DNA of 64,000 nucleotides from Candidatus Omnitrophota bacterium. Its GTDB lineage: Bacteria; Omnitrophota; Gorgyraeia; Gygaellales; Profunditerraquicolaceae. The position numbers and the translations under genes are program-made. This document shows positions 5,326 to 62,976 of this stretch, piece by piece. Below the pieces are notes generated by a model, which searched no databases, was not told the origin of the DNA, and worked only from the letters and a program-made list of their open reading frames with translations. The stretch covers positions 20,638 to 84,637 of the forward strand of contig JAQUQW010000003.1 of the NCBI GenBank assembly GCA_028716245.1, in the 5' to 3' direction. Position 1 is the first letter of the stretch. Every line of letters begins with the position of its first letter.

Positions 5326-5355
5326 ATTAATCTTCTATTTAAGCTGTATCTCTTA

Positions 5356-5364
5356 TGTTATAAT
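5356..5364 (+). promoter_or_regulatory. extended -10 promoter element TGT-TATAAT, 6 nt before ATG 5371 (possible leaderless transcript)
   Basis: Sequence atgTTATAATttgaatATG; no SD between -10 and start. Confidence 0.3.
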
Positions 5365-6513
5365 TTGAATATGAACGAAAGGAAAATACCCAGTGAACAT
5401 AAATTAATCTTGCTTTGTACAAGATTAAAGATAAACGAACCTAACCGGAATGAAATCTTGGGCCTTCTAAATGGGCCGCTTAACTGGAATAGAATAAGAG
5501 AATTCTCCGTCCGGCAAGAAATCCTGCCTTTTCTGTATTATAACTTAAACAGGCTGAATCTTCAAGATTCCATCCCTCAGGAGATGTTCGCAATAATGAA
5601 AAACTACCATTATTCTAACCTTGTTAGAAACTCAATGTTAGAAAAAGAGGCTGCGCTTATTCTGAAATCGGCCAATTCCGCGGGCATAACCATTATGCCT
5701 TTCAAAGGCTTTAGCTTAATACAAACAATATACCAGAGCAATCCTGAGCTAAGGATAATGGTTGATGTCGATATACTTGTAAAAGAAACTGAATTTCCGA
5801 AAATAAAAAATATTCTTACCCAAACAGGCTATATAGAAAATACGGATACTATTGGCAATAAAATCGCTTTCGAAAACGTCTTCTCAAAAAAGCTTTCCGC
5901 GAGTTTTTCGTCAATTATAGAGATCCACACCGAGCTTTCTCCTGCCCGCCCTTACCCGCTCAAACTCCCGCAACTTTGGGAAAGAACCCGGGAAATAAAC
6001 ATTAATAGCCAGAAAATATCGCTTTTATCCGCGGAAGACACATTTTTATCCTTAGCCCTGCATTTACGCAGGCATCTGCGGAGGCTAACTTTAAAATTTA
6101 TAGTCGATATTTCTGAATTGTTAAGCGCGAGCGGCGAAAACCTTGATTGGAAATATATAAAGAAATCGGCCCAAGATAGCCATATGATAACAACCGTTTA
6201 TCTTTCTCTTTATATCACGAAAGAACTGCTGGATATGCCTGTTGCCGGCAAAATCTTAAATGAATTCCGGCCAAATATCATTAAAAACGCCCTGATAAGT
6301 TTATCGATAAACAAACATAATTTTTTTACTTTTAAAAAATGGCAAGCCACGTTTTTGCGGTTTTTACTTTTTGACCGCCTTTTAGACTTCTTCCTTTATC
6401 TCTGGCGGGTATCTTTTGTCGAAAGATTTATCGGCAGACGGGCCCGCAAAAAGACTAAAACAAACGCTATACCGAGAATACCGATAAGAAATATTGTGGA
6501 AACCAGGAAGTAA
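5365..6513 (+). CDS. PF14907-like putative nucleotidyltransferase (RiPP-cluster-associated)
   Basis: ORF track starts at TTG 5365; first ATG at 5371. ...FKGFSLIQTIYQSNPELRIMVDVDILVKETEFPKIKNILTQTGY... resembles the G-x-A...R-x-DxDxLV core of the uncharacterised nucleotidyltransferase family found next to PqqD/HprK genes in lasso-type clusters. Confidence 0.55.
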   Translation: MNMNERKIPSEHKLILLCTRLKINEPNRNEILGLLNGPLNWNRIREFSVRQEILPFLYYNLNRLNLQDSIPQEMFAIMKNYHYSNLVRNSMLEKEAALILKSANSAGITIMPFKGFSLIQTIYQSNPELRIMVDVDILVKETEFPKIKNILTQTGYIENTDTIGNKIAFENVFSKKLSASFSSIIEIHTELSPARPYPLKLPQLWERTREININSQKISLLSAEDTFLSLALHLRRHLRRLTLKFIVDISELLSASGENLDWKYIKKSAQDSHMITTVYLSLYITKELLDMPVAGKILNEFRPNIIKNALISLSINKHNFFTFKKWQATFLRFLLFDRLLDFFLYLWRVSFVERFIGRRARKKTKTNAIPRIPIRNIVETRK

Positions 6514-29764: not shown

Positions 29765-31960
29765 CTATTTAATGAACAGCATTTCGCGATACTTAGGCAA
29801 ATCCCAGGCATCATCGGAAACTACGCATTCCAGCTGGTCAACATGCTTTCGAATATGCTCCATCAAAGGTTTAAGCTCATCAAAATAAAGCTTGGCGCGT
29901 TTTTCATTGCTTAGCTTCCTAGCATCCTCAAGCAGCTTAACCATTTCACCAACATTTCTGCGCACATAATATATCTTAGCGACTATTTCAGCCAAATGTT
30001 CTTTTTTGTCTTTTAATGCCGCGATATCTACTTTTAAGCCGGCATCTTTCTGCAACTTGACCAACGCGTCCAGGTTTGCCGCCAACAATTTTTCATATTC
30101 ATAGCCTGCCGGCACTACCGAAGCATTAACCATTTCGTTTAAGGTATTGGCCTCGATTTCAAGAATCAAGTTATACATATGGACCCAGATATGGTAACGG
30201 GCAATCAACTCTTCTTTAGAGAAGACTTTGTACTTCTCAAAAAGGGCAATATTCTCTTTTTTGGTTAAAGCTTCCAGGGATTCATAAGTTGAAGCGATAT
30301 TCGGTAACCCTCGCTTCTTGGCTTCTTTAATCCATTCTTCCGCGTAGTTATTTCCTTCAAAGCGGATATCTTTGGTTTCTTTAACAATCTTGGAAATTAC
30401 CATTAACACCGCGGAATTAAAATCCTTTCCCGTAGATTTGGCCCGCTTGATCTGTTCAGCGACATAATCAAGGCTTTCAGCAATGATGGTATTGATTACC
30501 GCAATGGGTGTGGAGATATTCTGCGATGAACCGACGGCACGGAATTCAAACTTTGCGCCGGTAAAAGCAAAAGGCGAAGTACGGTTACGGTCAGTTGAGT
30601 CCTTGTTGAATTTAGGCAAGCGGGCTATGCCTAAATCAATAATATCAGCTTTAGAAACTTTAGACTTAACCCCTTTTTCAATCATATTTAAAATAGAGGT
30701 TAACTGCTCCCCTAAGAATACACTAATAATCGCCGGAGGGGCTTCATTAGCGCCTAAGCGGTGCTCGTTGCCGGCAAGGGCAACTGAAGCGCGCAATAAA
30801 TCGGCGTGCAGATAAACCGCCCTTAAAACCGCGGCTAGGACGGCTAAAAATTGTAAATTATCTTCCGGAGTCTGTCCCGGATTAAGTAAATTATCGCCTT
30901 TATCATCTGCCAGCGACCAGTTTAAATGCTTGCCGCTGCCGTTGATTCCGGCAAAAGGTTTCTCATGCAATAAACAAACCAGGCCATGGCGTAAAGCAAC
31001 TTTTTTCATCAATTCCATAAGCAACTGATTGTGATCGGCGGCAATATTTGATTCTTCAAATATCGGAGCAAATTCATACTGATGCGGGGCAACTTCATTG
31101 TGCCGGGTCATTACCGGTATACCCAATTTATAAGCCTCTTCAGCCACCTCAAACATAAAATTAACCACCCGCTCTTTAATCGTGCCGAAATACTGATCCT
31201 CTAACTGCTGGCCTTTAGGAGATGGCGCTCCAACCAGGGTCCGGCCGGTCATGATCAAATCCTGGCGTAAATTGTAATAGTTCTTATCGATCAGGAAATA
31301 TTCCTGCTCCGGCCCGCAGGTAGAAAATATCTTTTTTACATCTTTATGGCCGAAAAGTTTAATCAGGCCTAAAGCGGCATTGTTTAACGCTTCATCCGAA
31401 CGTAAAAGCGGCAGCTTCTTATCCAGGGCTTCTCCATGGTAAGAAATGAATATCGTGGGAATACAGAGAGTCTTACCGAGCTTGCTTTCAATAATAAATG
31501 CCGGGCTGGAAGGATCCCAAGCAGTATAACCTCTGGCTTCAAAGGTTGCCCGGATTCCTCCTGATGGAAAACTGGAGGCATCCGGTTCACCCTGGATTAA
31601 TTTATTCCCCGAGAATTTTTCGATTACTTTTCCCGGAGCGGTTATCGAAATAAAACTGTCATGCTTTTCCGCGGTAAGCCCGGTCATCGGCTGAAACCAG
31701 TGCGTATAATAAGTAGCGCCTTTTGCCATTGCCCAGTCTTTCATCGCGTTAGCAATCTCATTTGCCTGCGCTAAAGTTATGGTTTTACCTTCGGACATCC
31801 AGGTCTTGAATGCCTCAAAAGTACCTTTGGAAATATGCTTTTGCATGGTCTCGGTGCTGAAGGTATTCACACCGAAATAAGAAGAAACTTTTTTAGGAGA
31901 ATCTATTTTCTCTAATTCGGTACTTTTAATTTTAAATAAAACTTTCTGTCTTATACTCAT
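29765..31960 (-). CDS. glnN: glutamine synthetase type III
   Basis: 731 aa; GSIII-type N-terminal extension and catalytic domain; AGGAGG SD 6 nt upstream. Confidence 0.9.
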   Translation of the reverse strand: MSIRQKVLFKIKSTELEKIDSPKKVSSYFGVNTFSTETMQKHISKGTFEAFKTWMSEGKTITLAQANEIANAMKDWAMAKGATYYTHWFQPMTGLTAEKHDSFISITAPGKVIEKFSGNKLIQGEPDASSFPSGGIRATFEARGYTAWDPSSPAFIIESKLGKTLCIPTIFISYHGEALDKKLPLLRSDEALNNAALGLIKLFGHKDVKKIFSTCGPEQEYFLIDKNYYNLRQDLIMTGRTLVGAPSPKGQQLEDQYFGTIKERVVNFMFEVAEEAYKLGIPVMTRHNEVAPHQYEFAPIFEESNIAADHNQLLMELMKKVALRHGLVCLLHEKPFAGINGSGKHLNWSLADDKGDNLLNPGQTPEDNLQFLAVLAAVLRAVYLHADLLRASVALAGNEHRLGANEAPPAIISVFLGEQLTSILNMIEKGVKSKVSKADIIDLGIARLPKFNKDSTDRNRTSPFAFTGAKFEFRAVGSSQNISTPIAVINTIIAESLDYVAEQIKRAKSTGKDFNSAVLMVISKIVKETKDIRFEGNNYAEEWIKEAKKRGLPNIASTYESLEALTKKENIALFEKYKVFSKEELIARYHIWVHMYNLILEIEANTLNEMVNASVVPAGYEYEKLLAANLDALVKLQKDAGLKVDIAALKDKKEHLAEIVAKIYYVRRNVGEMVKLLEDARKLSNEKRAKLYFDELKPLMEHIRKHVDQLECVVSDDAWDLPKYREMLFIK

Positions 31961-31972
31961 TTCTTCCTCCTA

Positions 31973-32018
31973 GCCCACAAGGGCACACCCGCGCAATTCC
32001 TTATAAGCGCGGGGTGTT
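31973..32018 (-). repeat. GC-rich hairpin element copy 1 (REP-like / candidate 5'-UTR RNA structure) directly upstream of glnN SD
   Basis: gcccacaagggcacacccgcgcaattccttataagcgcggggtgtt; 11-bp stem ACACCCGCGC/GCGCGGGGTGT plus small hairpin GCCC-ACAA-GGGC. Confidence 0.6.
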
Positions 32019-32104
32019 GCATGAAATAGTTAATTTATTCTACCACAATCAGTAAAAATTAAAAGAGGCATTCTTTAAGGTCCCAGAACGCCCCTGTTCT
32101 CTCT

Positions 32105-32145
32105 AAGTACAAGTAAAAAACTTGCGCTTCTGGTAACCTGTTTTC
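32105..32145 (-). promoter_or_regulatory. conserved promoter-region motif copy A (TACAAGTAAAAA-N10-TGGTAACC)
   Basis: One of 4 similar ~45-nt segments (others 34008..34050, 35993..36040, 44633..44680), each just after a minus-strand stop codon and 100-250 nt before the next start. Confidence 0.35.
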
Positions 32146-32487
32146 TTACCCAATAGCTATTGCCCCGCGTTCTTCAGTTCTTATACGCACACACTCCTTA
32201 AGATCCAAAACAAAGATCTTGCCATCCCCGGTTTCACCGGTCTTAGCCCCTTTAACAATGGCTTTGATTGTCGGCTCAAGATAATTATCATTTACGGCAA
32301 TTTCAAGACGAATTTTACGCAAAAGGTTTCCGGTTTCCCTGGCCCCCCGATAAACTTCCGTCACGCCTTTCTGCCGGCCATGGCCTAGGACCTCGCTTAC
32401 CGTAAGCAAATTCACCTGCGCTTTATACAACTCTTCTTTTACTTCCTCTAATTTATACGGTTGAATTATCGCAATGACTAATTTCAT
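32146..32487 (-). CDS. glnK: nitrogen regulatory protein P-II
   Basis: 113 aa MKLVIAIIQPYK...; T-loop ...GRQKGVTEVYRG (Tyr51). AGGAGG SD before ATG 32487. The ORF-track TTG extension to 32523 translates the repeat element and is rejected. Confidence 0.9.
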   Translation of the reverse strand: MKLVIAIIQPYKLEEVKEELYKAQVNLLTVSEVLGHGRQKGVTEVYRGARETGNLLRKIRLEIAVNDNYLEPTIKAIVKGAKTGETGDGKIFVLDLKECVRIRTEERGAIAIG

Positions 32488-32499
32488 GTATCCCTCCTT

Positions 32500-32545
32500 G
32501 CCCACAAGGGCACACCCGCGCAATTCCTTATAAGCGCGGGGTGTT
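32500..32545 (-). repeat. GC-rich hairpin element copy 2 in amt-glnK intergenic region
   Basis: Identical to copy 1 over 45 nt; abuts the amt stop codon and the glnK SD. Confidence 0.6.
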
Positions 32546-33770
32546 ATTCTAAAATTGTATATGCGCGTTCACGATGCTGGGTAAGGTCAAGGCCAACCAG
32601 CTCATCCTTTTCGCTTACCCGCATCCTAAAGAAGACATCTACCAGTTTGTAAATAACGAAAGTGGCAAAGAAAGTGTAACTAACCGCAACCACAACCGCA
32701 ACTAATTGTATCAGCAGCTGTTTAGAATTACCATAGAATAATCCATTTGCGCCGGCCGGGTTAATTATCTTAGAAGCCAATACCCCTGTCAAAAGCGTGC
32801 CAAGTATCCCTCCGACGCCATGCACGCCAAAAGCATCCAAAGAATCATCATAACCAAACCGCGGTTTGGTTACGGCAACCGCGATAAAACAAATTATGCT
32901 GGCGGCAATCCCGATAATAATGGCTGAAATCGGGCTGACAAATCCTGAGGCAGGAGTAACAGTAGCAAGTCCTGCAATTGAACCGGTTACGATTCCAAAT
33001 ACCGTGGGCTTGCCATTACGGATCCACTCCAAAAATGCCCAGCTTAAACCCGCTGCTGCTGCGGCAGTATTGGTAGCAATAAAAGCGCTTACGGCAACTC
33101 CATTTACCGCTAAAGCGCTTCCGGCATTAAAACCATACCAGCCAAACCATAAAAGCGCAGTCCCCAAAACTACAAAAGGAAGATTATGCGGCGATGGCGT
33201 ATGCTCCAGGTTTTTTCGCTTACCGATAACAATCGTCGTAACTAAAGCGGCGATGCCTGCGCTGGTATGCACGACAATTCCTCCGGCAAAATCCAAGACA
33301 CCCAGGTTCCTGAGCCATCCGCCAACTCCCCAAACCCAGTGGCACAAAGGATCATAAACAAATGTTGCCCAGAGCAAAGTGAAAACTAAAAATGCCGAAA
33401 ACTTCATCCGCTCGGCAAAAGCGCCGATAATTAAAGCCGGAGTAATCACGGCAAACATCATCTGAAAAACCATAAATGCCTGATGCGGGATAGTCGCGGA
33501 ATAACCCGCGTAAGGAGTCGCCCCCACTCCGTTTAAGCCAAACCAACTAAGCCCTCCCCAAAATCCGTTGCCCGGGGCAAATGCAAGGCTGTAACCAAAA
33601 AGTATCCATTGCAAAGATAATAAACATAAGGCCACAAAACATTGCATTAAGACACTTAAGATATTCTTGCGCCTGACCATGCCGCCGTAGAAAAAAGCCA
33701 GGCCGGGGGTCATCAACATTACAAAGGCCGCCGACATCAAAACGAATAACGTATCTGCTTGATTAATCAT
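32544..33770 (-). CDS. amt: ammonium transporter Amt
   Basis: ~408 aa, 11 TM, Amt signature regions; GGGAGGTGAG SD favours ATG at 33770 (the ORF-track start 33782 lies within the SD). Confidence 0.9.
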   Translation of the reverse strand: MINQADTLFVLMSAAFVMLMTPGLAFFYGGMVRRKNILSVLMQCFVALCLLSLQWILFGYSLAFAPGNGFWGGLSWFGLNGVGATPYAGYSATIPHQAFMVFQMMFAVITPALIIGAFAERMKFSAFLVFTLLWATFVYDPLCHWVWGVGGWLRNLGVLDFAGGIVVHTSAGIAALVTTIVIGKRKNLEHTPSPHNLPFVVLGTALLWFGWYGFNAGSALAVNGVAVSAFIATNTAAAAAGLSWAFLEWIRNGKPTVFGIVTGSIAGLATVTPASGFVSPISAIIIGIAASIICFIAVAVTKPRFGYDDSLDAFGVHGVGGILGTLLTGVLASKIINPAGANGLFYGNSKQLLIQLVAVVVAVSYTFFATFVIYKLVDVFFRMRVSEKDELVGLDLTQHRERAYTILE

Positions 33771-33821
33771 CTCACCTCCCATAAATAGTTCTTTCTCTTA
33801 AGCCCCATTTCCCGATTAGCT

Positions 33822-33960: not shown

Positions 33961-34050
33961 ATTGCGCTATTCAATATAAACACTACAGCGTGCCTATATT
34001 AACTTATAATCATACAAGTAAACAATTGCTTGTTTTGGTAACTTAAATTT

Positions 34051-34392
34051 TTATCCTATCGCCGAGTTTCCCTGCTCTTCGGTGCGGATGCGGATACATT
34101 CCTTAAGATCCAGGATAAAGATTTTACCGTCGCCAGTTTCACCGGTCTTAGCCCCTTTAACAATAGCTTTGATTGTCTGGTCAAGGTAGTTATCATTCAC
34201 GGCAATCTCAAGACGAATTTTACGCAAAAGGTTTCCGGTTTCCTTCGAACCACGGTAAACTTCCGTCACGCCTTTCTGCCGGCCGTGCCCTAAAACTTCA
34301 CTTACGGTAATCAGGTTTACTTCCGCTTTATACAATTCTTCTTTTACTTCCTCTAATTTATACGGTTGAATTATCGCAATGACTAATTTCAT
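34051..34392 (-). CDS. glnK: nitrogen regulatory protein P-II (second copy)
   Basis: 113 aa, near-identical to the 32146 copy; Tyr51 present. Confidence 0.9.
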   Translation of the reverse strand: MKLVIAIIQPYKLEEVKEELYKAEVNLITVSEVLGHGRQKGVTEVYRGSKETGNLLRKIRLEIAVNDNYLDQTIKAIVKGAKTGETGDGKIFILDLKECIRIRTEEQGNSAIG

Positions 34393-34415
34393 AAAAACCT
34401 CCTTGTGAGAATCCA

Positions 34416-34457
34416 GGGGACGGTTCTGGAAAATCCAGAACCGTCCCCGTGTTTTTC
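34416..34457. repeat. perfect 12-bp hairpin GGGGACGGTTCTGG-AAAATCC-AGAACCGTCCCC with T-run, in amt-glnK intergenic region
   Basis: Read directly from sequence; occupies the same position as hairpin element copy 2 in the other amt-glnK pair. Confidence 0.5.
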
Positions 34458-34458
34458 G

Positions 34459-35688
34459 CTATTCTAATATGGTATACGCCCTCTCTCTATGCTGTGTCAG
34501 GTCAAGGCCCATAGCTTCTGACTTCTCATCCACCCTGACCCCGATAAAAATATCTACTAATTTGTAGATGATAAAGGTCATAACTCCCGTATAAACAACA
34601 GTTACCCCTACAGCTAAAAGCTGAACCAGGAACTGTTTGGGGTTACCAAAAAATACTCCGTTGGCACCGGCGGAATTAACCAGCTTGGAGGCAAATAACC
34701 CGGTAGCCAATGCCCCCCAAATTCCTCCGACACAATGCACGCCAAAAGCATCCAGCGAATCATCATAACCAAACAAAGGTTTGATTACGGTTACAGCGAT
34801 AAAACAAAATACACTTACCAATAAACCGATAATAATTGCCGGGATAACACTGACAAAACCCGCCGCTGGAGTAATCGCAACTAATCCGGCAACCGCGCCC
34901 GAACAAAGGCCGAAGATAGTCGGTTTACCATTACGGATCCACTCAATCAAAGCCCAACTTAAACCCGCGGCCGCCGCGGCAGTGTTGGTCACGACAAAAG
35001 CGTTTACCGCCAGGCCATTTGCCGCTAAAGCGCTTCCGGCATTAAAACCAAACCAGCCAAACCATAAAAGCGCCGTGCCTAAGACCACAAAAGGCATATT
35101 ATGCGGTGTAGGTACATTTTTCTCCAGGTTATTTCTTTTACCTAACACAATTGCCGTCACTAAAGCAGCGATACCGGCGTTGATGTGCACGACAGTGCCT
35201 CCGGCAAAATCCAAAGCTCCCAAATTCCTCAGCCATCCACCTATTCCCCAAACCCAGTGGCATAGAGGATTATAAACAAAGGTTGCCCAAAGCAGGGTAA
35301 AAATTAAAAAAGCCGAAAACTTCATCCTCTCGGCAAACGCACCGATGATTAAAGCCGGAGTGATTATCGCGAACATCGCCTGAAAGATCATAAAGGCCTG
35401 ATGCGGAATCGTTCCGGAGTAGTCCGCATAAGGCTCTAAACCTACTCCATTTAAACCCAGCCATTGCAGCCCTCCCCAGAATCCATTTCCCGGGTGAAAA
35501 GATAAACTATAACCCACCAAAACCCATTGCAGGCTTAAAACACACATAATGATAAAACATTGCATCAAAACACTTAACACATTCTTGCGCCTGACCATGC
35601 CGCCGTAGAAAAAAGCCAGGCCGGGAGTCATCAATAAAACCAGCGCTGATGAAATCAAAACCCACGCCGTATCGCCTGAATTAATCAT
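34459..35688 (-). CDS. amt: ammonium transporter Amt (second copy)
   Basis: 409 aa, paralogous to the 32544 copy. Confidence 0.9.
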   Translation of the reverse strand: MINSGDTAWVLISSALVLLMTPGLAFFYGGMVRRKNVLSVLMQCFIIMCVLSLQWVLVGYSLSFHPGNGFWGGLQWLGLNGVGLEPYADYSGTIPHQAFMIFQAMFAIITPALIIGAFAERMKFSAFLIFTLLWATFVYNPLCHWVWGIGGWLRNLGALDFAGGTVVHINAGIAALVTAIVLGKRNNLEKNVPTPHNMPFVVLGTALLWFGWFGFNAGSALAANGLAVNAFVVTNTAAAAAGLSWALIEWIRNGKPTIFGLCSGAVAGLVAITPAAGFVSVIPAIIIGLLVSVFCFIAVTVIKPLFGYDDSLDAFGVHCVGGIWGALATGLFASKLVNSAGANGVFFGNPKQFLVQLLAVGVTVVYTGVMTFIIYKLVDIFIGVRVDEKSEAMGLDLTQHRERAYTILE

Positions 35689-35888: not shown

Positions 35889-36032
35889 GGAAATTACATA
35901 TGCATTTGATAAAACAAATGTGCAAAAAAAGTTAATAAAAAAGCGCTCTATTTTCATAGAACGCCTATGTTTAAGTCTCACACTTCAATGTGTCTTACAT
36001 TACTACAAGTAAAAAATACTTAAATCTGGTAA

Positions 36033-36557
36033 CTAAATTTTATCTAAATGTTTTTGGGATTTAGCCCTGATCTTGCGCATCAGCTTAACCACGCTGACAT
36101 GGGATATCCCCATACGCTTGCCTATATCTCTGGTAGTCAGGCCCTGGCTAAAATAATCAAGCAGCCTTTTCTCTTTCGGGTTAAAACCATTATCCCGGAT
36201 GCTTTGCGCTAAAAACTTATTGTGTAAATCCTGCCGGCAATCCGGACAAGACCAATATTTCCCCAATACCTCTTCTACGGTTGCCTCATTATTGGTATTC
36301 AAAGAAGCATCCATACTAATAATATTGGAACGCTCATTTACTTTACGGATATAGTTCCTCAAGTGGAAATAACATCCCTGCAAGATATAGCTGTCGGTCT
36401 TATCGCTAAGCTTGCCTTTTAGAAAATTACTCCAAAGGTGGATTGAGGCCTCCTGATACAGATCCTCATGGCTAAACGAACGATAGCGTCCGTTTAACTT
36501 ATAGGCAATCCGCTTAATGGTTGGCGACAGTTTCCGGTGCAACTCCTCAAAACCCAT
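36033..36557 (-). CDS. sigma-70 family (ECF-like) sigma factor
   Basis: Region 2-like DLYQEASIHLWSNF and region 4 HTH LTTRDIGKRMGISHVSVVKLMRKIRAK. Confidence 0.7.
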   Translation of the reverse strand: MGFEELHRKLSPTIKRIAYKLNGRYRSFSHEDLYQEASIHLWSNFLKGKLSDKTDSYILQGCYFHLRNYIRKVNERSNIISMDASLNTNNEATVEEVLGKYWSCPDCRQDLHNKFLAQSIRDNGFNPKEKRLLDYFSQGLTTRDIGKRMGISHVSVVKLMRKIRAKSQKHLDKI

Positions 36558-36604
36558 AGTTTACTCCCTTGTTAAAACAAAAACGTCCTTTGGTCCCATA
36601 TGGG

Positions 36605-36650
36605 TACACCCCGCGCTTATAATGTATTGCGCGGGTGTGCCCTGGTGGGC
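36605..36650 (+). repeat. GC-rich hairpin element copy 3, inverted orientation, between sigma-factor gene and P-type ATPase gene
   Basis: tacaccccgcgcttataatgtattgcgcgggtgtgccctggtgggc = reverse complement form of copies 1/2; preceded by CCCATATGGG palindrome. Confidence 0.55.
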
Positions 36651-36774
36651 AAAGGACGCCTTAGTCCTGACAAAATAAAAAAGCCTTCCGGCAAACCTTT
36701 CTCGCCAGAAGACTTCTGTGTCTTTTGCTACAACGCTGTAATCTATTTAAAGTTTAACACATTTCAGGGATTTG

Positions 36775-39700
36775 TCAACTAAAATTCCCAAAACGTTTCC
36801 GCAATTCTTCGATAGCAAATATCGATAGCATAAATAGAAATAATATCACCCAGTCCCCTGAGCTTAAACCCGTAGTATTGAATATCTTCTGAAAAAACGG
36901 CACGTAGATCAAGACGCAGGTAAAAATAAACGAAATGGCAATACTCCAGAAAATACGCATATTACTGAAAAACCCGATCCTAAATGTTGAATATTTTTCG
37001 CTGCGGCAATTAAAAACATTGGCGATTTGCATCACGACAATACCAACAAAAAGAATGGTCATTGCCTTCAGATGCAGCGGATTAGTAAAGGTAGTGTCAT
37101 TTGGCTCAAGCTGCATTCCGGGTTTCCATCCTCCCTGAAAAAGTATAAGATAATAGGAACCTAAGGTTGCCGCCGTGCTCAACAGCCCCAAAATGATATA
37201 ACCTCTAAAGAGCACCATTTTATCAATCACTCCTTTATTCTTAGGCCTTGGCGGAAGGTTCATTATCCCCGGCTCGGGTTTCTCCGCGCCTAAGGCCAAG
37301 GCGGGAAAAATCTCCGTGCCCAAATCAATAGCTAAAATCTGCAGTACGGCAATCGGCACGGGAATCTTAAATAAAACATAGAATATAAAAGGTATCCCCT
37401 CGGGTACAAGGTGGGCGAAGATATAGGTAATAAATTTCTTGATATTATCGAATACCGCCCGGCCCTCTTCAATAGCCGAAACGATACTGGCAAAATTATC
37501 GTCGAGCAGAACCATCTCGGCGGATTCTTTGGCCACGTCAGTCCCGCGCAGCCCCATCGCCACGCCAATATCGGAACGCTTAAGGGCAGGGGCATCGTTG
37601 ACGCCGTCTCCGGTCACCGCCACGATATTACCCATCTCCTTAAAAGTATTTACCACCCTTAATTTATGCTCGGGATTTGCCCTGGCAAAAATAATTTCTT
37701 TGCTGCCAACCTTCTCCTTTAATTGCTCATCGCTCATATGAATCAAATCTGTTCCGTTAATAACTTCGTAATTTTGCGAAGACACAATCCCTACCTGCCT
37801 GGCGATAGATAGGGCGGTTACCTGATAATCACCGGTAATCATCACCACGCGAATTCCGGCTTTTTTGCAAATCCCGACAGCATCTTTTACTTCCGGCCGG
37901 GGTGGATCATACATACCCGTGGCTCCGACAAAAACCAACTCTTTTTCAACCGACTGCGCCGTCGCCCCGGAAATATCCTTGGGATTAATTTTACAAAATG
38001 CAAAACCCAAAACCCTTAAACCTTCTTCGGCAAACCTCTCTACAGAAGCGGATATTTCCGATTTCTTCTCTACAGTCAAATCCGCGATATCGTTTCCAAG
38101 CATAACCTTATTACAAAGCTCCAGGATCTCTTTAGGAGAGCCCTTAACCAACGCATAAGTATCTCCATCGGGAAGAGTATGGATAGAGCTCATTCTCTTA
38201 CGTATCGATTCAAATGGAAAACGTTTTAGTACCGGATATTTTAGGCGCTCTTGGTCGGCGTCATAACCGGCTTTTCGCATTAAGGTCAATAATGCGGCTT
38301 CCGTCGGATCGCCAATAATACTCCAATACGTTATCGTCTCTGAGGGAGAATTTAGCTTTGCGGTATTGCATAATGCGCAAATATGCATCAGCTGATCAAA
38401 AGCAGCGCTCCGAAGAACATTTTTTAAAAGAACGCTGCCCTTACAAGTAAATTCTCCTGCCGGTTCATATCCGCTTCCGGAGGCTTCGATAACCTTATCA
38501 TCGATCCAAATTTTCCGGACACTCATTTGATTGGTTGTCAGCGTGCCGGTTTTATCCGTGCAAATAACGTTGGTACAACCCAACGTTTCTACTGAAGAAA
38601 GTTTTTTGATCAGGGCTTTCCGCTTAGCCATCCGCTGCACGGCCATGGCCAAGGCAAGGGTCAAAGTAGGCATGAGCCCCTGAGGAACATTGGCCGTAAT
38701 AATACCTATCGCAAACATTCCCGAAGCAAAAACCGTCAATTTAGTAAAAAATAAACCCGCAAAGAAAAAAACCAAACCCATAGCTACCGATATAAATGAA
38801 ATCAATTTGCCGATGCGATTGACCTCTCTTTGCAGCGGGCTGAGATCTTCTTTGACCGTCTGCGTCAGGTAGGCGATTTTACCAATCTCGGTCCCCATAC
38901 CCGTGGCAATGACCACCGCTTTTCCCATGCCTGAGGCAACGCTGGTTCCGGCAAAAACCAAATTAGGCATTTCCAGCCACAGAAAATCCTTTCCGTCATG
39001 AAATTCCTCTGAAAATTTATAGGCCAGCTTGGATTCTCCGGAGAAGGCGCTATTGTTCAAGCGTAATTCGGCAGCTTCGATCAACCTGGCATCCGCGGGG
39101 ACGTTATCTCCTTCCTCCAGCATAATGATATCTCCCGGGACAATCTCGCTTGTAGGCACGAGCTTCTCCTTGCCCTCCCTGATTAGACGGGCATTAGATG
39201 GAATCAGTTTGGAAAGCGCCTCAATCGCCTTCTCCGCTTTAAACTCCTGCCAAAAACTAAATATCGCGTTAATAAAGACTACGGCAATGCAGGCCCAACC
39301 TGCCTCCGGCATCTGCGCCCAAAAACAAAGGGCGCCGCAAATCCACATCATCACCGCCAGTAAATTAGTAAGATGGAGCGAGAACCTTATAATCAAGGGG
39401 GTTTTTTTAACGGCTTTCAATTTATTGGTTCCATATACCTCCAGCCGTTTTCCCGCGGAAACTTCAGAGATACCGTTATCGCTGCTTGCCAATTCAAGAT
39501 AAATCTCCTCTTTGCTTAAAGCGATAAAACCTTCTTTCTCGATTCCTCCATACTTTAAGGCCCGATAGAGCTCCTCGTTGGTTGAGCAGTTCAGGATCTG
39601 CCGGACAAATACTTTATTATCCAAGAGTACGGCCAGCTTCGATAAAATTTTAAGATGCATTTCGCTTTCTACCAGCGGAGTCAGAAAAAACATAACCAAA

Positions 39701-40029
39701 TGCACCGGCTTCTTGTCAATGGAAGAAAAATCTATTCCTTCCCTTGAGATGCCAACAAATATCAATCCCTCTTTTAGTTCAGCTATTCTAGCATGGGGGA
39801 TAGCTATGCCATCCCCGATTCCGGTACTGCCAAGCTTTTCCCTTTTGAGAAGGCTTTCTAAAACACGTTTTTTGTCTTTAATTTTGCGGCTTTTATAAAG
39901 CTGGTCGACAATCTCCCGGATTACACCTTCACTTGTACGGGATTTCAAGTTTACGCTTAATAGATCCTTATATACCAAATCCGCGATTTTCACTTCTTGC
40001 TCTCCTTTTATACCAGCGTTCTCATACAA
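36775..40029 (-). CDS. P-type cation-transporting ATPase with N-terminal PTS EIIA(Ntr)-like domain
   Basis: N-terminal ~150 aa: ...GIGDGIAIPHARI... (EIIA type-2 active-site His). Remainder: DKTGTLT phosphorylation motif, TGDGVNDAPAL, 8-10 TM. TTG start. Confidence 0.85.
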   Translation of the reverse strand: MYENAGIKGEQEVKIADLVYKDLLSVNLKSRTSEGVIREIVDQLYKSRKIKDKKRVLESLLKREKLGSTGIGDGIAIPHARIAELKEGLIFVGISREGIDFSSIDKKPVHLVMFFLTPLVESEMHLKILSKLAVLLDNKVFVRQILNCSTNEELYRALKYGGIEKEGFIALSKEEIYLELASSDNGISEVSAGKRLEVYGTNKLKAVKKTPLIIRFSLHLTNLLAVMMWICGALCFWAQMPEAGWACIAVVFINAIFSFWQEFKAEKAIEALSKLIPSNARLIREGKEKLVPTSEIVPGDIIMLEEGDNVPADARLIEAAELRLNNSAFSGESKLAYKFSEEFHDGKDFLWLEMPNLVFAGTSVASGMGKAVVIATGMGTEIGKIAYLTQTVKEDLSPLQREVNRIGKLISFISVAMGLVFFFAGLFFTKLTVFASGMFAIGIITANVPQGLMPTLTLALAMAVQRMAKRKALIKKLSSVETLGCTNVICTDKTGTLTTNQMSVRKIWIDDKVIEASGSGYEPAGEFTCKGSVLLKNVLRSAAFDQLMHICALCNTAKLNSPSETITYWSIIGDPTEAALLTLMRKAGYDADQERLKYPVLKRFPFESIRKRMSSIHTLPDGDTYALVKGSPKEILELCNKVMLGNDIADLTVEKKSEISASVERFAEEGLRVLGFAFCKINPKDISGATAQSVEKELVFVGATGMYDPPRPEVKDAVGICKKAGIRVVMITGDYQVTALSIARQVGIVSSQNYEVINGTDLIHMSDEQLKEKVGSKEIIFARANPEHKLRVVNTFKEMGNIVAVTGDGVNDAPALKRSDIGVAMGLRGTDVAKESAEMVLLDDNFASIVSAIEEGRAVFDNIKKFITYIFAHLVPEGIPFIFYVLFKIPVPIAVLQILAIDLGTEIFPALALGAEKPEPGIMNLPPRPKNKGVIDKMVLFRGYIILGLLSTAATLGSYYLILFQGGWKPGMQLEPNDTTFTNPLHLKAMTILFVGIVVMQIANVFNCRSEKYSTFRIGFFSNMRIFWSIAISFIFTCVLIYVPFFQKIFNTTGLSSGDWVILFLFMLSIFAIEELRKRFGNFS

Positions 40030-40067
40030 ATAAAAAACCAGAGAACGCTTTCCCTGGCATGTTCTCT
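40030..40067 (-). terminator. leader terminator hairpin (AGAGAAC-N14-GUUCUCU + U6) immediately upstream of ATPase start; overlaps alternative antiterminator
   Basis: Plus-strand 40040..40046 / 40061..40067 inverted repeat; U-run from 40039..40030 on minus strand; 3' arm AGCGUUCUC is also exactly complementary to codons 3-5 (GAGAACGCU). Confidence 0.4.
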
Positions 40068-40233
40068 CAAAATTGGCTTACGAGGTTAGCTGTCGGGCTC
40101 GGGTCGAGTAACCCTAATCTGATATTTCCAGATATTGGCCCCAAGATCATTTTAGTCGATCGGATTCTTGGATTCCCCGCTATCTTTTTAGATTCACATA
40201 CAAGTCTAAAAAAAGATTAAGCTTATTAAAATA

Positions 40234-44610: not shown

Positions 44611-44681
44611 TGCATCACTGCATGCCTTACATTAGTACAAGTAAAAAGATGCTGGCATTGGTAACCTAAATTTTTACTTAG

Positions 44682-46981: not shown

Positions 46982-47702
46982 TTTTCTTGGCTCTTATGTC
47001 TTTTGCCAAAATAATCGCTTCGGCCACCTGGCGCATGGATTTTCGCATATCCATACTTTGCTTCTGGATCAAGCGATATGCCTCTGAAGGTAGAATATTA
47101 GCTTCTTGAGAAAGGATATCCTTTGCCCGCTCGACTAATTTACGAATATTCAAAGCCTCTTCTGCCGAGCGAACGCGTAAATCCAGCTCCGCGTTTTCAA
47201 TGGCAATCGCTGCCTGGTTTGCCAAAGCCGTCAAAAGATCCAATTCGTGTTTAGAAAATTTGTGCTTTTTAGAAGTATAGCAGTTAAGCGCTCCGATAAC
47301 TCTTCCCTTCACTGCCAACGGCACACAGGCCAAAGAACAAAGGCCCTCTTTTTTAGCCAGATCCTGGTTTAGATAGCGGCCGTCGGTTTTAACATCCAAA
47401 ATACACACCGGCTTGTTGTCTCTGGCAACCACGCCGGCTATGCCCTCGCCTAAACGGATATTGGGCTTTTTATTGTAGGCCTCAGATATTGACTGCGTAG
47501 CTTTAACTACCAGCTCCTTCTTATCCGGATCAAGCAACATCAAAGAAGAAATCTTAGAGCTCATAATTTCAGCGGTAACCTGCACAACCAGGCGCAACAG
47601 TTCTTCAAGGTACATACCTGAAGTAATCAGGTTGGCTACTTTAGAAATTGCCTCGATCTGTTTTACGTAAACCTGAAAATTATCTTTCTTTTTGGCAGCC
47701 AT
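46971..47702 (-). CDS. GAF-ANTAR RNA-binding antitermination regulator
   Basis: N-terminal GAF-like domain; C-terminal ANTAR ...ALNIRKLVERAKDILSQEANILPSEAYRLIQKQSMDMRKSMRQVAEAII. Confidence 0.7.
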   Translation of the reverse strand: MAAKKKDNFQVYVKQIEAISKVANLITSGMYLEELLRLVVQVTAEIMSSKISSLMLLDPDKKELVVKATQSISEAYNKKPNIRLGEGIAGVVARDNKPVCILDVKTDGRYLNQDLAKKEGLCSLACVPLAVKGRVIGALNCYTSKKHKFSKHELDLLTALANQAAIAIENAELDLRVRSAEEALNIRKLVERAKDILSQEANILPSEAYRLIQKQSMDMRKSMRQVAEAIILAKDIRAKKNER

Positions 47703-49361: not shown

Positions 49362-49406
49362 GCCACAAGGGCACACCCGCGCAATTCATTATAGGCGCGG
49401 GGTATT
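49362..49406 (-). repeat. GC-rich hairpin element copy 4, directly upstream of lrp SD
   Basis: gccacaagggcacacccgcgcaattcattataggcgcggggtatt. Confidence 0.6.
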
Positions 49407-49498: not shown

Positions 49499-49576
49499 CT
49501 ACTAAGGGACGCTACTAAGGGACGTCCTGTTAGGGGACACCCTTAGAAAAGGGTGTCCCCTAACAGGACGTCCCCG
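49499..49576. repeat. tandem direct repeats (CTACTAAGGGACG x2) followed by 24-bp perfect palindrome with 4-nt loop
   Basis: Direct repeats 49499..49511 and 49512..49524; inverted repeat arms 49521..49544 / 49549..49572; lies between phoU stop and lrp. Confidence 0.6.
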
Positions 49577-49605
49577 ATTAGAGGAAAGCAAAAGACGGAA
49601 ATTAA

Positions 49606-50274
49606 CTATTTTAATTCTTCGGGATGGTGCTTGACTACCTTCGCCTCAACCATATAAATTACATCTTCGGCGATATTGGTAGTATGGTCGCAGATACGCT
49701 CTAGGTATCTGGCAATAAGTATCAATGCCACGGCACGATCAGCGGTTTTGGGATCACGTGCCAGATATTCATTAACCAGTTCATCCTGCACCAGATTACG
49801 CAGCTTATCAGCTTCGCAATCCGCTAAAACTACCTGCCGGGCCAGCTGGGCATCTTTCTTTACAAATGCGTCAATTGCATCCTTTACCATATTCTGCGCC
49901 ACCTGGGAAAGTTTGGGAATATCTACTAATGGCTTAAGTAAAGGCTTGTCCATCAATCCTAAGGATTTTTGTGAAATATCCAAAGCTATATCGGCAATCC
50001 GCTCCAGTTCCGTATTTATCTTCATCCCGGTTGTAATATACCTTAGGTCTCCTGCCATCGGCTGGTAACGGGCAATAAGATCGATGCATTTCTCATCGAT
50101 TGCCAACTCCAGTTCATCGATCTTATTATCGGTATCAATTACATCCTGAGCCAGGTATTTGTCGCGGTTCTTTAGCGACTCGATAGATTTAAATATCGAC
50201 TCCTGGGCAAATACCGCCATTTTTAAAATTTCCTTGTGCAGTTCCTTTAATTCTTCATCTAAGTGTCTTAACAT
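49606..50274 (-). CDS. phoU: phosphate signalling regulator PhoU
   Basis: 222 aa, two PhoU repeats (E/DxxxD motifs). Confidence 0.85.
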   Translation of the reverse strand: MLRHLDEELKELHKEILKMAVFAQESIFKSIESLKNRDKYLAQDVIDTDNKIDELELAIDEKCIDLIARYQPMAGDLRYITTGMKINTELERIADIALDISQKSLGLMDKPLLKPLVDIPKLSQVAQNMVKDAIDAFVKKDAQLARQVVLADCEADKLRNLVQDELVNEYLARDPKTADRAVALILIARYLERICDHTTNIAEDVIYMVEAKVVKHHPEELK

Positions 50275-50285
50275 TGGACTCCTCC

Positions 50286-51041
50286 TTAACCGTATCGGCC
50301 GGTAATATAGTCTTCTGTCCGCTTATCTTTCGGCCTGGTAAAAATATCCTCTGTTTTACCAAACTCAACCAACTCGCCTAAAAGCATAAAACCCGTTTGG
50401 TCCGAAACGCGCGCTGCCTGCTGCATATTATGCGTAACAATTATTATCGTATAGTTATTCTTGAGTTCACGCATTAATTCCTCAATACGGCTGGTTGCCT
50501 GCGGGTCAAGGGTCGAACAGGGTTCATCCATCAGTAAAATCTCGGGCTTAACCGCGATCAGCCGGGCAATACAAAGCCGCTGCTTTTGTTCGAGCGATAA
50601 GCTCAGCGCGGATTTATTCAGCCTATCTTTAAGTTCATCCCATAAAAGAACGGATTTTAAACTATCCTCAACCACCCCATCAAGTTTAAGCTTGGTTAGG
50701 CCTTCGGCATGCACCTTCTGGCCAAAAACAATATTCTCATAAATAGATAACGGAAAAGGATTGGGACGCTGAAAAACCATACCTACTTTTTTACGCAAGC
50801 CCACTAAATCCGTTTTATCGGAAATTATATTCTGTGCGTCGATAATTACTTCTCCTTCAACGCGCACCCCCTCAATAAGGTCGTTCATCCGGTTAAATAC
50901 CCGCAGTAAAGTCGACTTACCGCATCCCGATGGCCCGATCATGGCGGTAATTTGGTTTTGGGTAAAATGCGCGTTCACCTTGATCAGCGCCTGAAAATCC
51001 GCGTACCATAAATTTAAATTATTTACCTTAATCTCCGCCAT
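50286..51041 (-). CDS. pstB: phosphate ABC transporter ATP-binding protein
   Basis: [34 protein letters not shown]. Confidence 0.9.
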
Positions 51042-60601: not shown

Positions 60602-61279
60602 TCAGCTGTTTTCATCTAATTTTTCCAGATGGTGTTTTACTACTTTTGCTTCAACCATATAGATTACATCTTCGGCAATATTGGTGGCATGGTCGCAGAT
60701 ACGCTCAAGGTGGCGGGCAACCAAAAGCAGGGGGATAGCGCGCGGGATGGTGGATTTATTTTTGGATATATAGTCATTAAGCAATTCCTGCTGGACCAGA
60801 TTGCGCAGGTTATCGGCTTGGCTGTCGCTTAATATTACGCTCCTGGCTAATTCCGCGTCTTTATTAACAAATGCGCTTATAGAATTACGGGTCATTTCCT
60901 GGGCCAGGAGTGTTAACTTCGGAATATCTACCAGAGGCTTAAGCAGCGGCTTATCCGCCAACTCCAGCACCCGCTGGGATATATCTACAGCTAAATCCGC
61001 CATTCTTTCCAAATCAGTAGAGATCTTCATCGCCATGGTAATAAAACGCAGGTCTACTGCCATCGGCTGCCTTAAAGCCAAAAGATCCAGGCATTTTTCA
61101 TCAATCTTTAACTCCTGCTCATCGGTAAACTGGTCTTCATGAATGACCTTTTGAGCCTTATCTCTACTTAACTGCTTTAATGCCTCAACTGAATCGATAA
61201 TCGCCTCCTCTACTAAATCGCCCATCCGGAGTATGTTACCTTTTAAATCCGCCAACTCTGCGTCAAAATGCCTTTCCAT
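60602..61279 (-). CDS. phoU: PhoU (second copy)
   Basis: 225 aa, paralog of 49606..50274. Confidence 0.85.
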   Translation of the reverse strand: MERHFDAELADLKGNILRMGDLVEEAIIDSVEALKQLSRDKAQKVIHEDQFTDEQELKIDEKCLDLLALRQPMAVDLRFITMAMKISTDLERMADLAVDISQRVLELADKPLLKPLVDIPKLTLLAQEMTRNSISAFVNKDAELARSVILSDSQADNLRNLVQQELLNDYISKNKSTIPRAIPLLLVARHLERICDHATNIAEDVIYMVEAKVVKHHLEKLDENS

Positions 61280-61311
61280 AATCAGGCCTCTCTAATAAAA
61301 AGTTTTTTCAT

Positions 61312-62070
61312 TTAACCAAACCTCCCAGTTATATAAGCCTCGGTTTTCTTATCTTTGGGGGCAGTGAATATATCCTGCGTTTTGCCAAACTCTATTAATT
61401 CCCCTAAAAGAAAAAAACCGGTATAATCGGATACGCGGGCTGCCTGCTGCATATTATGAGTAACGATTATCATGGTATAATCTTGTTTTAATTTGAATAT
61501 CAACTCTTCGATTTTCCCGGTAGAAATAGGATCCAGGGCAGAACAGGGTTCATCGAACAAAATTACTTCCGGCTTAACTGCCAATGCCCTGGCAATACAT
61601 AACCGCTGCTGCTGGCCTCCGGAAAGGCTGACGCCCGAAGAATTGAGTTTATCTTTTACTTCATCCCATAAAGCAGCCATTTTAAGAGATTGCTCAACTA
61701 TTAAATCAAGGCGGCCTTTCTTCATTAAGCCATTTAATTTTAAGCCCGCGGCTACATTGTCATAAATAGAGAGCACGGGAAAGGGATTAGGTTTCTGAAA
61801 TACCATACCAATCTTCCGCCTTATTTCAATGGGGTCGATATCAGCCGAATAGATATCTTTACCGTCTAATAAAACCTTGCCGGATACTTTTGTATTCGGC
61901 ACAACCTCGTGCATCCTGTTTATACAGCGTATAAACGTGGACTTGCCGCAACCTGAAGGGCCGATGATAGCGGTAACCATTTTTTCTCTAATCGAAATGT
62001 TGATATCCTTTAATGCCTGGATATTGCCAAAATATGCGTTCAAATTTGAAACCCCGATTGTTTCTTCCAT
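61312..62070 (-). CDS. pstB: phosphate ABC transporter ATP-binding protein (second operon)
   Basis: [34 protein letters not shown]. Confidence 0.9.
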
Positions 62071-62081
62071 ATTCCTTCCTT

Positions 62082-62126
62082 GCCCACAAGGGCATACTGG
62101 CGCAATTCAAATAAGCGCCAGGTATT
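62082..62126 (-). repeat. GC-rich hairpin element copy 5 (stem with compensatory substitutions) in pstA-pstB intergenic region
   Basis: gcccacaagggcatactggcgcaattcaaataagcgccaggtatt: stem CATACTGGCGC/GCGCCAGGTAT versus CACACCCGCGC/GCGCGGGGTGT in other copies. Confidence 0.6.
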
Positions 62127-62976
62127 ATCTTGACGTTGGGAATTTATACCGCAATCTAATTACAAACCGGCTGATGAAACTCATTAAAAAAACTATGACA
62201 ATTAAGACAAAAGCGCCTGCCCAAGCCTGCCTGTGCCAATCATCAAAAGGAGAAATCGCGTAGGCGAATATTTGAAGAGGTAAAGCGGCTATGGGCTGCT
62301 GCAGGCTCTGATGCCAGAACCTATTGCCAAAGGCGGTAAAAAGAAGCGGGGCTGTTTCTCCGGCAATGCGCGCTATTGCCAGCAGAATACCGGTCAGTAT
62401 CCCCGGTAACGCGGTTTTTAACACAATGCTAATTATCATCCTGAACTGGTTGATGCCTAAGGCTAACGCGCCCTCGCGTAAATTACGGGGCACCATCCTG
62501 AGCATCTCTTCGGTTGTGCGCATTACTGTTGGCAACATAATTATCCCCAAAGCGAAAGCGCCGCTTACCGCTGAGAAGCTTTTCATTGGCAGGACGAATA
62601 AAGTATAGGCGAATATCCCGATTACAATAGAGGGAATCCCGTTTAAAACATCCACGGTAAACCTGATCGTTGTGCCTAATTTATTCTTGCCGAATTCAGA
62701 AAGATATACCCCGCCCAATACTCCTATAGGTATTGCCCATAGACAGGAAAGACCCATTAAAATCAGGCTTCCCACTATAGCATTACCCATACCTCCGCCG
62801 GGTTCTCCCACAGGTTTGGGCAGATGAATAAAAAAGTTAAGATTTACGCTGGTAATCCCTTTTGAGACGACATAACCCAAAATACTAATCAAAGGCACTA
62901 AGGTCAAAATTGAGCACAGAAACGCGGCCAGGCACATTAATTTGTCGGTAATCTTTCTTTTTTTGTAGCTGTTCAT
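62125..62976 (-). CDS. pstA: phosphate ABC transporter permease PstA (second operon)
   Basis: 283 aa, 6 TM. Confidence 0.85.
   Translation of the reverse strand: MNSYKKRKITDKLMCLAAFLCSILTLVPLISILGYVVSKGITSVNLNFFIHLPKPVGEPGGGMGNAIVGSLILMGLSCLWAIPIGVLGGVYLSEFGKNKLGTTIRFTVDVLNGIPSIVIGIFAYTLFVLPMKSFSAVSGAFALGIIMLPTVMRTTEEMLRMVPRNLREGALALGINQFRMIISIVLKTALPGILTGILLAIARIAGETAPLLFTAFGNRFWHQSLQQPIAALPLQIFAYAISPFDDWHRQAWAGAFVLIVIVFLMSFISRFVIRLRYKFPTSR

Follow-up and report, generated by a model that had tools for sequence, protein, structure and literature searches.

The hairpin element in this DNA is a previously undescribed, interspersed repeat of Candidatus Omnitrophota, about 45 nt in length and composed of two hairpins, a long GC-rich stem (P1) and a short hypervariable stem (P2). 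Compensatory changes show that both stems are under structural selection, and the orientation of the repeat is coupled to the sense strand of the mRNA.

The five copies in the window

The window, i.e. the whole 64-kb stretch of DNA analysed here, contains five copies of the repeat, four with their RNA sense on the minus strand and one in the opposite orientation. A covariance model built from the five copies scores them at 78–91 bits, with E-values of 1e-22 to 1e-26, and a scan of the rest of the window with the filters off returned nothing above 15 bits. Matches to GCCCACAAGGGC number 4 in the window, against 0.22 expected by chance. The coordinates of the copies, of their flanking genes and of the parts of copy 5 are:

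Copy 1: 31973..32017, minus strand, 88.4 bits; P1 and P2 directly 5' of the Shine–Dalgarno (SD) sequence AGGAGG
Gene behind copy 1: 29765..31960, minus strand, glutamine synthetase type III (glnN, GS III), ATG at 31960
Copy 2: 32500..32544, minus strand, 90.7 bits; fills the gap from the amt stop codon to the glnK SD and ATG
Flanks of copy 2: amt stop codon at 32544-32546; ATG of glnK (PII) at 32487-32489
Copy 3: 36606..36650, plus strand, 78.5 bits; opposite orientation
Copy 4: 49362..49405, minus strand, 79.8 bits; 5' leader of an Lrp/AsnC-type gene (ATG 49346)
Copy 5: 62082..62125, minus strand, 82.6 bits, E-value 1.5e-23; between pstA and pstB
P1 of copy 5, RNA sense: 5' arm AUACCUGGCGC at 62115-62125, loop at 62104-62114, 3' arm GCGCCAGUAU at 62094-62103
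P2 of copy 5, RNA sense: GCCC-UUGU-GGGC at 62082-62093
SD-like AAGGAAGGAA and ATG of pstB (ORF 61312..62070): 62068..62081, minus strand, directly 3' of copy 5 P2

On the minus strand, the four copies take the form 5'-P1-P2-SD-N(3-9)-ATG. P1 in the window is ACA[C]CCCGCGC (bulged C in brackets), followed by a 12-nt loop, UUAUAAGGAAUU, and GCGCGGGUGU. P2 is GCCC-UUGU-GGGC and starts at the next nucleotide after P1, with AAGGAGG following within 0–2 nt. The genes behind the four sense copies encode glutamine synthetase III, PII/GlnK, an Lrp/AsnC regulator (followed by an aminotransferase gene) and PstB; the PII and GS III identities are backed by Pfam. In copies 2 and 5, the upstream stop codon (that of amt and of pstA, the latter at 62125-62127) overlaps the first base of P1, and the repeat fills the whole intercistronic gap. 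Copy 4 has lost one base from P2, and the U–G wobble in its P1 can pair on the minus-sense strand alone. Copy 3 runs antisense to the genes on either side of it, a P-type ATPase (36775..40029) and a sigma-like gene (36033..36557), and is followed by an SD-like AAAGGA without a start codon. In folding calculations, P1 forms in all five copies and P2 in copies 1 and 5; in the minimum-energy fold of copies 2 and 4, CCCUU pairs with the SD (GAGGG) instead of forming P2.

Copy 5 had been singled out in the original prediction as carrying three changed stem positions on each arm with pairing preserved, and the alignment of the five window copies confirms this. On the plus strand, 62082-62126 reads GCCCACAAGGGC ATACTGGCGC AATTCAAATAA GCGCCAGGTAT T, whereas the canonical window copies, in plus-strand reading, are GCCCACAAGGGC ACACCCGCGC AATTCCTTATAA GCGCGGGGTGT. 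The long stem, canonically ACACCCGCGC/GCGCGGGGTGT with one unpaired G, is ATACTGGCGC/GCGCCAGGTAT in copy 5. Relative to the other four copies, three base pairs have thus been exchanged with exact compensation on the two arms, one as ACA/TGT becomes ATA/TAT and two as CCC/GGG becomes CTG/CAG. The unpaired extra G (the bulged C of the other strand) and the GCGC top of the stem are retained. So are the loop ends AATTC..ATAA and the flanking GCCCACAAGGGC hairpin (the second hairpin), as had also been claimed, although the loop is one base shorter than the canonical one (11 nt versus 12 nt). The variant stem, CCUGGCGC/GCGCCAGG, is found as well in four unrelated metagenome loci (L007, L020, L025 and L060) and therefore represents a real subfamily rather than sequencing noise or a one-off. 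The changes in copy 5 did not arise in this genome but are those of the older CCUGGCGC/GCGCCAGG group, to which this copy belongs.

Several further features of the window were observed. In the minus-strand transcript, copy 3 is embedded at the tip of a long and very stable hairpin, GGCGUCCUUUG.../...CAAAGGACG, behind which comes a U-run, UUUUUGUUUU (36558-36720). This hairpin (-75.5 kcal/mol, z = -8.7), which is conserved in the closest relative, L004, lies between the ATPase terminator (36679-36717) and the sigma-like gene; as folded, it looks like a second terminator or an attenuator ahead of the latter. The amt–glnK pair is tandemly duplicated (32146-33782 and 34051-35688; 75–86% DNA identity, repeat families D1–D6), and the two-hairpin repeat stands between amt and glnK only in the first of the pairs. 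There are also two pst/phoU clusters (49606-51041 and 60602-62976), with phoU paralogues of 74–85% DNA identity (families D7 and D9). Of these, only the second has the two-hairpin repeat, at pstA|pstB; in L004 it is found at pstB|phoU instead.

Structure, covariation and gene context of the family

A metagenome scan with a P1-core pattern retrieved at least 120 loci, and the model from the window copies gave at least 160 matches in metagenome loci (162 including one relative; 156 after filtering). The retrieval pattern fixed part of P1, so that P1 looks more conserved than it is and the census carries a bias. Most of the P1 variation is contributed by second copies in the loci retrieved; P2 was left free by the pattern.

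Covariation was assessed in a model-based alignment of 142 copies (138 distinct) among the matches listed. In this alignment, 98.3% of the cells are standard pairs and 11 of the 14 pairs have changed on both sides, giving 193 compensated cells. None of 500 shuffles reaches any of the covariation measures, and registers slid by 1–3 columns retain only 31–52% pairing. Without its terminal pair, P1 has 58 compensated cells versus 12 unpaired and 4 wobble; P2 has 129 versus 8 and 4. Uncompensated changes are thus far rarer than compensated ones in either stem, and the suggestion made from copy 5 that the covariation reflects selection on structure holds for the family.

P1 is a 10-bp GC-rich stem with a bulged C and an 11–12-nt loop of the form YWAW..KGWAUU. 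The C–G pair beside the bulge and the loop ends are strongly conserved; in the upper stem and at the loop ends, the search pattern forced part of the conservation. Compensated P1 variants that recur include CCUGGCGC/GCGCCAGG, CCGGCGC, CCGACGC, CCAACGC, CCUGGCCC, CCUAGCCC and CCUCCGC. The loop contains GGA in about 54% of copies (GGAAUU in 52%), the others having GGU, UGA or UGU. P2 is a hypervariable stem of 4–6 bp with an NN(G/C)U tetraloop and no or almost no linker from P1; it occurs in approximately 100 distinct sequences, with 469 Watson–Crick versus 15 other pairs among the matches listed. In some variants P2 is CCUCC/GGAGG, so that the SD itself forms the 3' arm. The SD, (A)AGGAG(G), follows P2 by 0–2 nt, and the start codon lies 4–8 nt beyond it in most copies. 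A tertiary pairing between the P1 and P2 loops was considered and rejected, as inspection by eye revealed no consistent complementarity across subfamilies.

The claim that a fixed protein-binding sequence is not what selection acts on went too far: structure is selected, but the bulged C is invariant in 99 of 99 unique P1 sequences among the matches listed and the loop ends are conserved. From this pattern, a sequence-specific partner of the bulge and loop remains likely.

Neither databases nor the literature searched contain an earlier description of the repeat. Rfam 15 at gathering thresholds gave a single hit in the whole window, a c-di-AMP riboswitch (RF00379, 72 bits; 40059-40233, minus strand) directly upstream of the 1084-aa P-type ATPase gene (36775..40029), and no match to the repeat. 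An Rfam scan at E<=10 of 31900-32620, which includes two copies, returned only a chance match of 8.6 bits. Viral contigs, phages and plasmids gave no match. A contig pattern, TTGCGCNNNGTRTGCCCTKGTGG, was too specific to the P2 type of this genome and found only three chance contigs, one of Syntrophomonadaceae and two of Cenarchaeum; a similar metagenome pattern found none.

The position of the repeat relative to genes is strand-specific. Among the matches listed, an SD-like motif, a start codon and an ORF lie within 75 nt downstream in 102 of 156 cases on the sense strand versus 8 in the antisense control, and the distances peak sharply at 23–27 nt from the end of P1. The terminal P1 pair is A–U or G–U in 81 of the 99 unique copies, where the other strand would have a C–A mismatch for G–U. 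Interior events are few (G–U versus A–C: 4 versus 10 in P1, 6 versus 3 in P2). Copies on both strands are found in one locus only (L063), where they lie upstream of divergent genes. The original prediction had left RNA and cruciform side by side; the sense bias and the terminal G–U pairs favour RNA on the mRNA sense strand over a cruciform.

Among the matches listed, 83 of 156 copies are tightly SD-adjacent. Of these, 49 are intercistronic (upstream same-strand ORF ending within 60 nt), and in 18 of the 49 the stop codon abuts P1 (-1 to +2 nt). Within operons, all of the room from the preceding stop codon to the SD is often taken up by the module. The longest SD match to UAAGGAGGUGA averages 6.3 nt, compared with 4.5 nt for 625 control genes from the same loci. 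The predicted accessibility of the SD is 0.49 versus 0.45 in controls (p = 0.085) and so is not reduced, the gain not being significant; on this ground, the module could be of no benefit and simply be tolerated. General sequestration of the SD was rejected as a mechanism, since other P2 types do not share the CCCUU/GAGGG pairing of copies 2 and 4, and the SD is no less accessible than in controls. A promoter inside the repeat was likewise rejected: on reading, no -35/-10 arrangement was seen, and TATAAT occurs in the loop only in copies 3 and 4. In two leaders with a guessable promoter the hairpin is not at the extreme 5' end, so that protection of the 5' end would need prior processing.

Genes of many different kinds lie downstream, chiefly abundant housekeeping genes whose SDs are unusually strong. 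Among the matches listed, 65 downstream proteins span 97 Pfam families and include EF-Tu, DnaK, enolase, PGK, NusA, SSB, L16, L20, NDK and ThyX, as well as GS III, PII, PstB, PhoU, PstS-like proteins, enzymes of cysteine and methionine metabolism and many secreted proteins. The same genes bear the repeat in several lineages with different compensated P2 stems, for example glnN three times, an MKILFVMP gene four times, and lrp, SSB, enolase and PGK twice each.

Gain, loss and spread among relatives

GS III homologues 85–96% identical to that of the window are all annotated as Candidatus Omnitrophota, as is every named protein-cluster member from ten metagenome loci. The closest relative is L004 (GCA_028715785.1), the GS III of which is 96% identical. 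Its glnN, glnK and lrp leaders lack the repeat at the sites orthologous to copies 1, 2 and 4. The orthologous glnN leader and amt|glnK junction of L005 lack it too, and L005 and L006 (GS III 92% identical) have no copy in 22 kb. The copies present in L004 are:

L004, between pstB and phoU: P2 GGCC/GGCC
L004, between the aminotransferase and GAF-ANTAR genes: P2 GUCU/AGAC
L004, 6452-6519: ortholog of window copy 3
L004, second antisense copy: P2 CCACC/GGUGG

Alignment of filled and empty sites shows the module of pstB|phoU to stand precisely between stop codon and SD, and that of glnN to lie directly 5' of the ancestral SD. Filled alleles at the lrp and GAF-ANTAR sites have an SD region unlike that of the empty ones, so that the module may bring its own SD. 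The GAF-ANTAR gene follows the lrp–aminotransferase pair in both genomes (window 47560-47700, minus strand; L004 3224-3946), and its SD region in L004 is replaced by the repeat tail (AGACAAGAUAAUG, compared with AGAGGAGAUAAUG in the window). The association of this gene with the repeat, a copy of which it carries in L004, is one of proximity only. The dual hairpin targeted by ANTAR proteins has hexaloops with A1 and G4; the repeat, with loops of 11–12 nt (P1) and 4–5 nt (P2), was rejected as such a target.

Tandem arrays are found in L063, L087 and L011; arrays with periods of 47–69 nt lie upstream of rsfS, argS and rpmB. What appear as half elements are nested copies, in which a complete P1–P2 unit lies inside the loop of another P1 in the same orientation; in L063, nesting reaches four levels. 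The loci with nested or tandem copies are:

L020, 5360-5550, minus strand
L063, 625-1660, plus strand, and 5261-5550, minus strand
L087, L106 and L113

Together with presence or absence between relatives, the arrays and nested copies show duplicative spread, and their sequence arrangement suggests self-targeted insertion or slippage. Separately, a short palindrome, CCTGCCTGCCGGCAGGCAGG, occurs next to or inside repeat copies in L025 (minus strand, ~1737-1800 as reverse complement), L061 and L120.

A test of the flanks for direct repeats found no target-site duplication, the mean being 2.65 nt versus 2.53 +/- 0.10 in permutations. A 10-nt flank repeat in L067 was considered as a target duplication and rejected as a tandem remnant. 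There are no terminal inverted repeats, and the two hairpins are unrelated in sequence. What the insertion sites have in common is a purine run resembling an SD, AAGGA, that directly adjoins the 3' side of the unit; the site of copy 3, though non-functional, has it as well.

Two other sequence families were seen in the same regions. A conserved promoter- or operator-like block lies upstream of glnN and of both amt–glnK operons (window 32100-32140, 34003-34053, 35994-36044 and 44626-44676) and recurs in relatives (L004 9860-9960; L005 9860-9950). In gene sense it reads GGTTACC-N(~14)-TTACTTGTA; near glnN it is followed by a GAAC-N6-GTTC palindrome and an extended -10-like TGTGGTAGAAT. The block is probably a nitrogen-regulon control region. 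A second, unrelated family consists of long GGGGACG-type palindromes (window 34407-34457, 49512-49581 and 27801-27884; L004 9384-9445 and 9815-9850). These lie at amt2|glnK2 in the window, at amt|glnK in L004 and downstream of phoU in both, and the same type of junction is thus filled by different hairpin repeats in different genomes.

Comparison, origin and possible function

The kinds closest to the repeat are the REP/BIME, MIRU and ERIC/Correia families, with which it has in common the nature of a structured, presumably transcribed, interspersed sequence. It departs from them in orientation symmetry, end motifs, terminal inverted repeats, target duplications and internal ORFs. Like the REP and BIME sequences of Enterobacteria and Pseudomonas, it is a short, GC-rich, imperfect palindrome with an unpaired base and many extragenic copies, often lying in operons after stop codons, predicted to be transcribed, with compensatory stem changes, clusters and copy sets that differ between lineages. 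REPs, which are known stabilisers of upstream mRNA segments, bear no constant relation to the SD of the following gene; they are found in either orientation and in inverted pairs, with a GTAG-type end motif linked to a RAYT gene. By contrast, the unit described here has two hairpins fused to a strong SD, an approximately 13-fold sense bias and no inverted pairs seen, and GTAG is absent from either end of the consensus of the five-copy alignment. Mycobacterial MIRUs are similarly intercistronic within operons, in one orientation, with ends that touch the upstream stop and the downstream start region. However, they are direct tandem repeats of 46–101 bp with small ORFs and are not defined by hairpins, whereas the present repeat has two covarying hairpins and no internal ORF and is also found in promoter-proximal leaders. 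ERIC/IRU, Correia (NEMIS) and BOX/RUP elements resemble it as non-autonomous, co-transcribed repeats that fold into RNA hairpins, which in those families alter mRNA processing or expression. They are 100–150 bp in size, with terminal inverted repeats and target duplications (for example TA), unlike the repeat of about 45 nt, which has neither.

The nearest conceptual parallel is an abundant, lineage-specific leader motif of marine Beggiatoaceae, the intergenic TAACTGA direct repeats near ribosome-binding sites, for which a post-transcriptional network has been proposed (PMC4679880); those are short heptamer repeats without conserved hairpins. Functional analogy, with no homology, exists to 5' stabilisers such as the 5' UTR hairpins of Escherichia coli ompA and Bacillus subtilis aprE/STAB-SD. 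In these, as in the plastid intercistronic expression element (IEE), which defines and protects mRNA ends (PMC2230500), a structure or bound protein just upstream of the SD protects mRNA ends and is portable between genes; all are single-gene or plastid elements rather than a dispersed repeat family. Known 5' stabilisers and intercistronic processing elements stop exonucleases with a stable closed domain in this place; by analogy, a closed domain beside the SD may have a protective role.

We propose that the repeat is a lineage-specific, transcribed, structure-selected leader repeat that would act as a portable cassette, protecting the ends of cistrons and presenting a strong SD, a reading that in our estimate is evenly balanced between right and wrong. 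P2 begins where P1 ends, and the two helices could stack into a closed, self-contained mRNA domain in which the 5' entry and the 3' exit of the unit would come together at one point, the helix junction. This would hold the upstream stop codon or leader beside the SD and leave the SD free, which would explain why insertion is tolerated at that position. Such a domain could serve as an exonuclease barrier, both for the 5' end of the downstream cistron and for the 3' end of the upstream one. The conserved loop and bulge of P1 would probably be the docking site of a factor. In this model, mRNA protection and SD presentation are the function we infer. A strictly RNA-level leader function leaves the antisense copies (copy 3 of the window and two in L004) unexplained, and such rapid turnover at orthologous sites, filled in one relative and empty in another, is equally compatible with a selfish and with a useful element.

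The alternative that the repeat is selfish, REP- or MITE-like mobile DNA, whose hairpins a transposase or a RAYT-like nuclease of the HUH type would recognise in single-stranded form and which would have no host function, is possible, if on balance improbable. Structure would then be kept for mobilisation, and copies at start sites would survive as the module carries or restores an SD and folds away. Presence or absence at orthologous sites between relatives with 96% identical GS III is as expected for such DNA, as are tandem arrays and copies nested in the loops of others, without any change of orientation, and antisense copies next to AAAGGA, which resembles an SD but is not a ribosome site. 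P2 is almost purely Watson–Crick with few wobbles, SD accessibility is no better than in controls, and the bulged base is invariant; hairpins recognised by HUH enzymes carry an invariant bulged base. The absence of target-site duplications, terminal inverted repeats, a GTAG-type end motif and inverted doublets argues the other way, and a non-systematic look at the loci noticed no transposase. The strong sense bias and the repeat on the same genes in several lineages with compensating P2 look like retention under selection. A further, more tentative reading, which we hold to be improbable on balance, sees in the repeat a leader cassette specific to the phylum and able to propagate itself, a mobile module of two hairpins aimed at positions just 5' of SD-like AAGGA sequences. 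Targeting of the SD-like loop of its own copies would explain the nesting. Many of the most highly expressed genes of Omnitrophota would receive from it a strong SD together with an RNA domain that protects or binds a factor, and the cassette would then be a domesticated mobile 5' UTR or the cis half of a global post-transcriptional system.

Regulatory readings fare less well. An operator for a CsrA/RsmA-like global regulator, which would bind the P1 loop (AAGGAA-like) and the adjacent SD and so repress or activate the translation of a large regulon, is unlikely. The loop does carry an SD-like purine motif (KGWAUU, with GGAAUU in about half of the copies) and lies approximately 25 nt upstream of an AAGGAGG SD; a two-site geometry of this kind is typical of CsrA targets. 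The CCUCC/GGAGG variants of P2, the conserved loop and bulge and the repeat on the same genes in several lineages are also compatible with it. However, although the SD contains GGA in most copies, about 45% of the loops lack this critical CsrA determinant, and a long conserved GC stem is not characteristic of CsrA targets. Mean SD accessibility is the same as for control genes, copies are lost or gained between close relatives, and no candidate protein was identified. A metabolite riboswitch or a pathway-specific (nitrogen or phosphate) leader is highly improbable. In the window, nitrogen or phosphate genes (GS III, PII, Lrp and PstB) do lie behind four of the five copies, and the alternative CCCUU/GAGGG pairing can sequester the SD in some copies. 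Against this, the breadth of the downstream gene spectrum, with EF-Tu, DnaK, glycolytic and ribosomal proteins, excludes a pathway-specific riboswitch. The repeat is also not conserved at the orthologous nitrogen-gene leaders (glnN, glnK and lrp) of close relatives, nor the alternative pairing across P2 types; there is no Rfam match, and the module is only about 45 nt long, without a multi-helix junction.

The Omnitrophota are uncultured bacteria, for the most part ultra-small and unusually active, and to our knowledge almost nothing is known about the control of gene expression in them. Their mRNAs would have a major feature in a structured module that stands precisely between stop codon or leader and ribosome-binding site in genes for EF-Tu, DnaK, glycolysis, ribosomal proteins and nitrogen metabolism. 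For annotation, the repeat explains many puzzling conserved intergenic hairpins in Omnitrophota metagenome-assembled genomes. Being rich in covariation, with hundreds of copies, the family lends itself to separating selection on RNA from mobility of DNA among interspersed repeats, and it offers synthetic biology a compact, portable, natural part that combines a hairpin with an SD.
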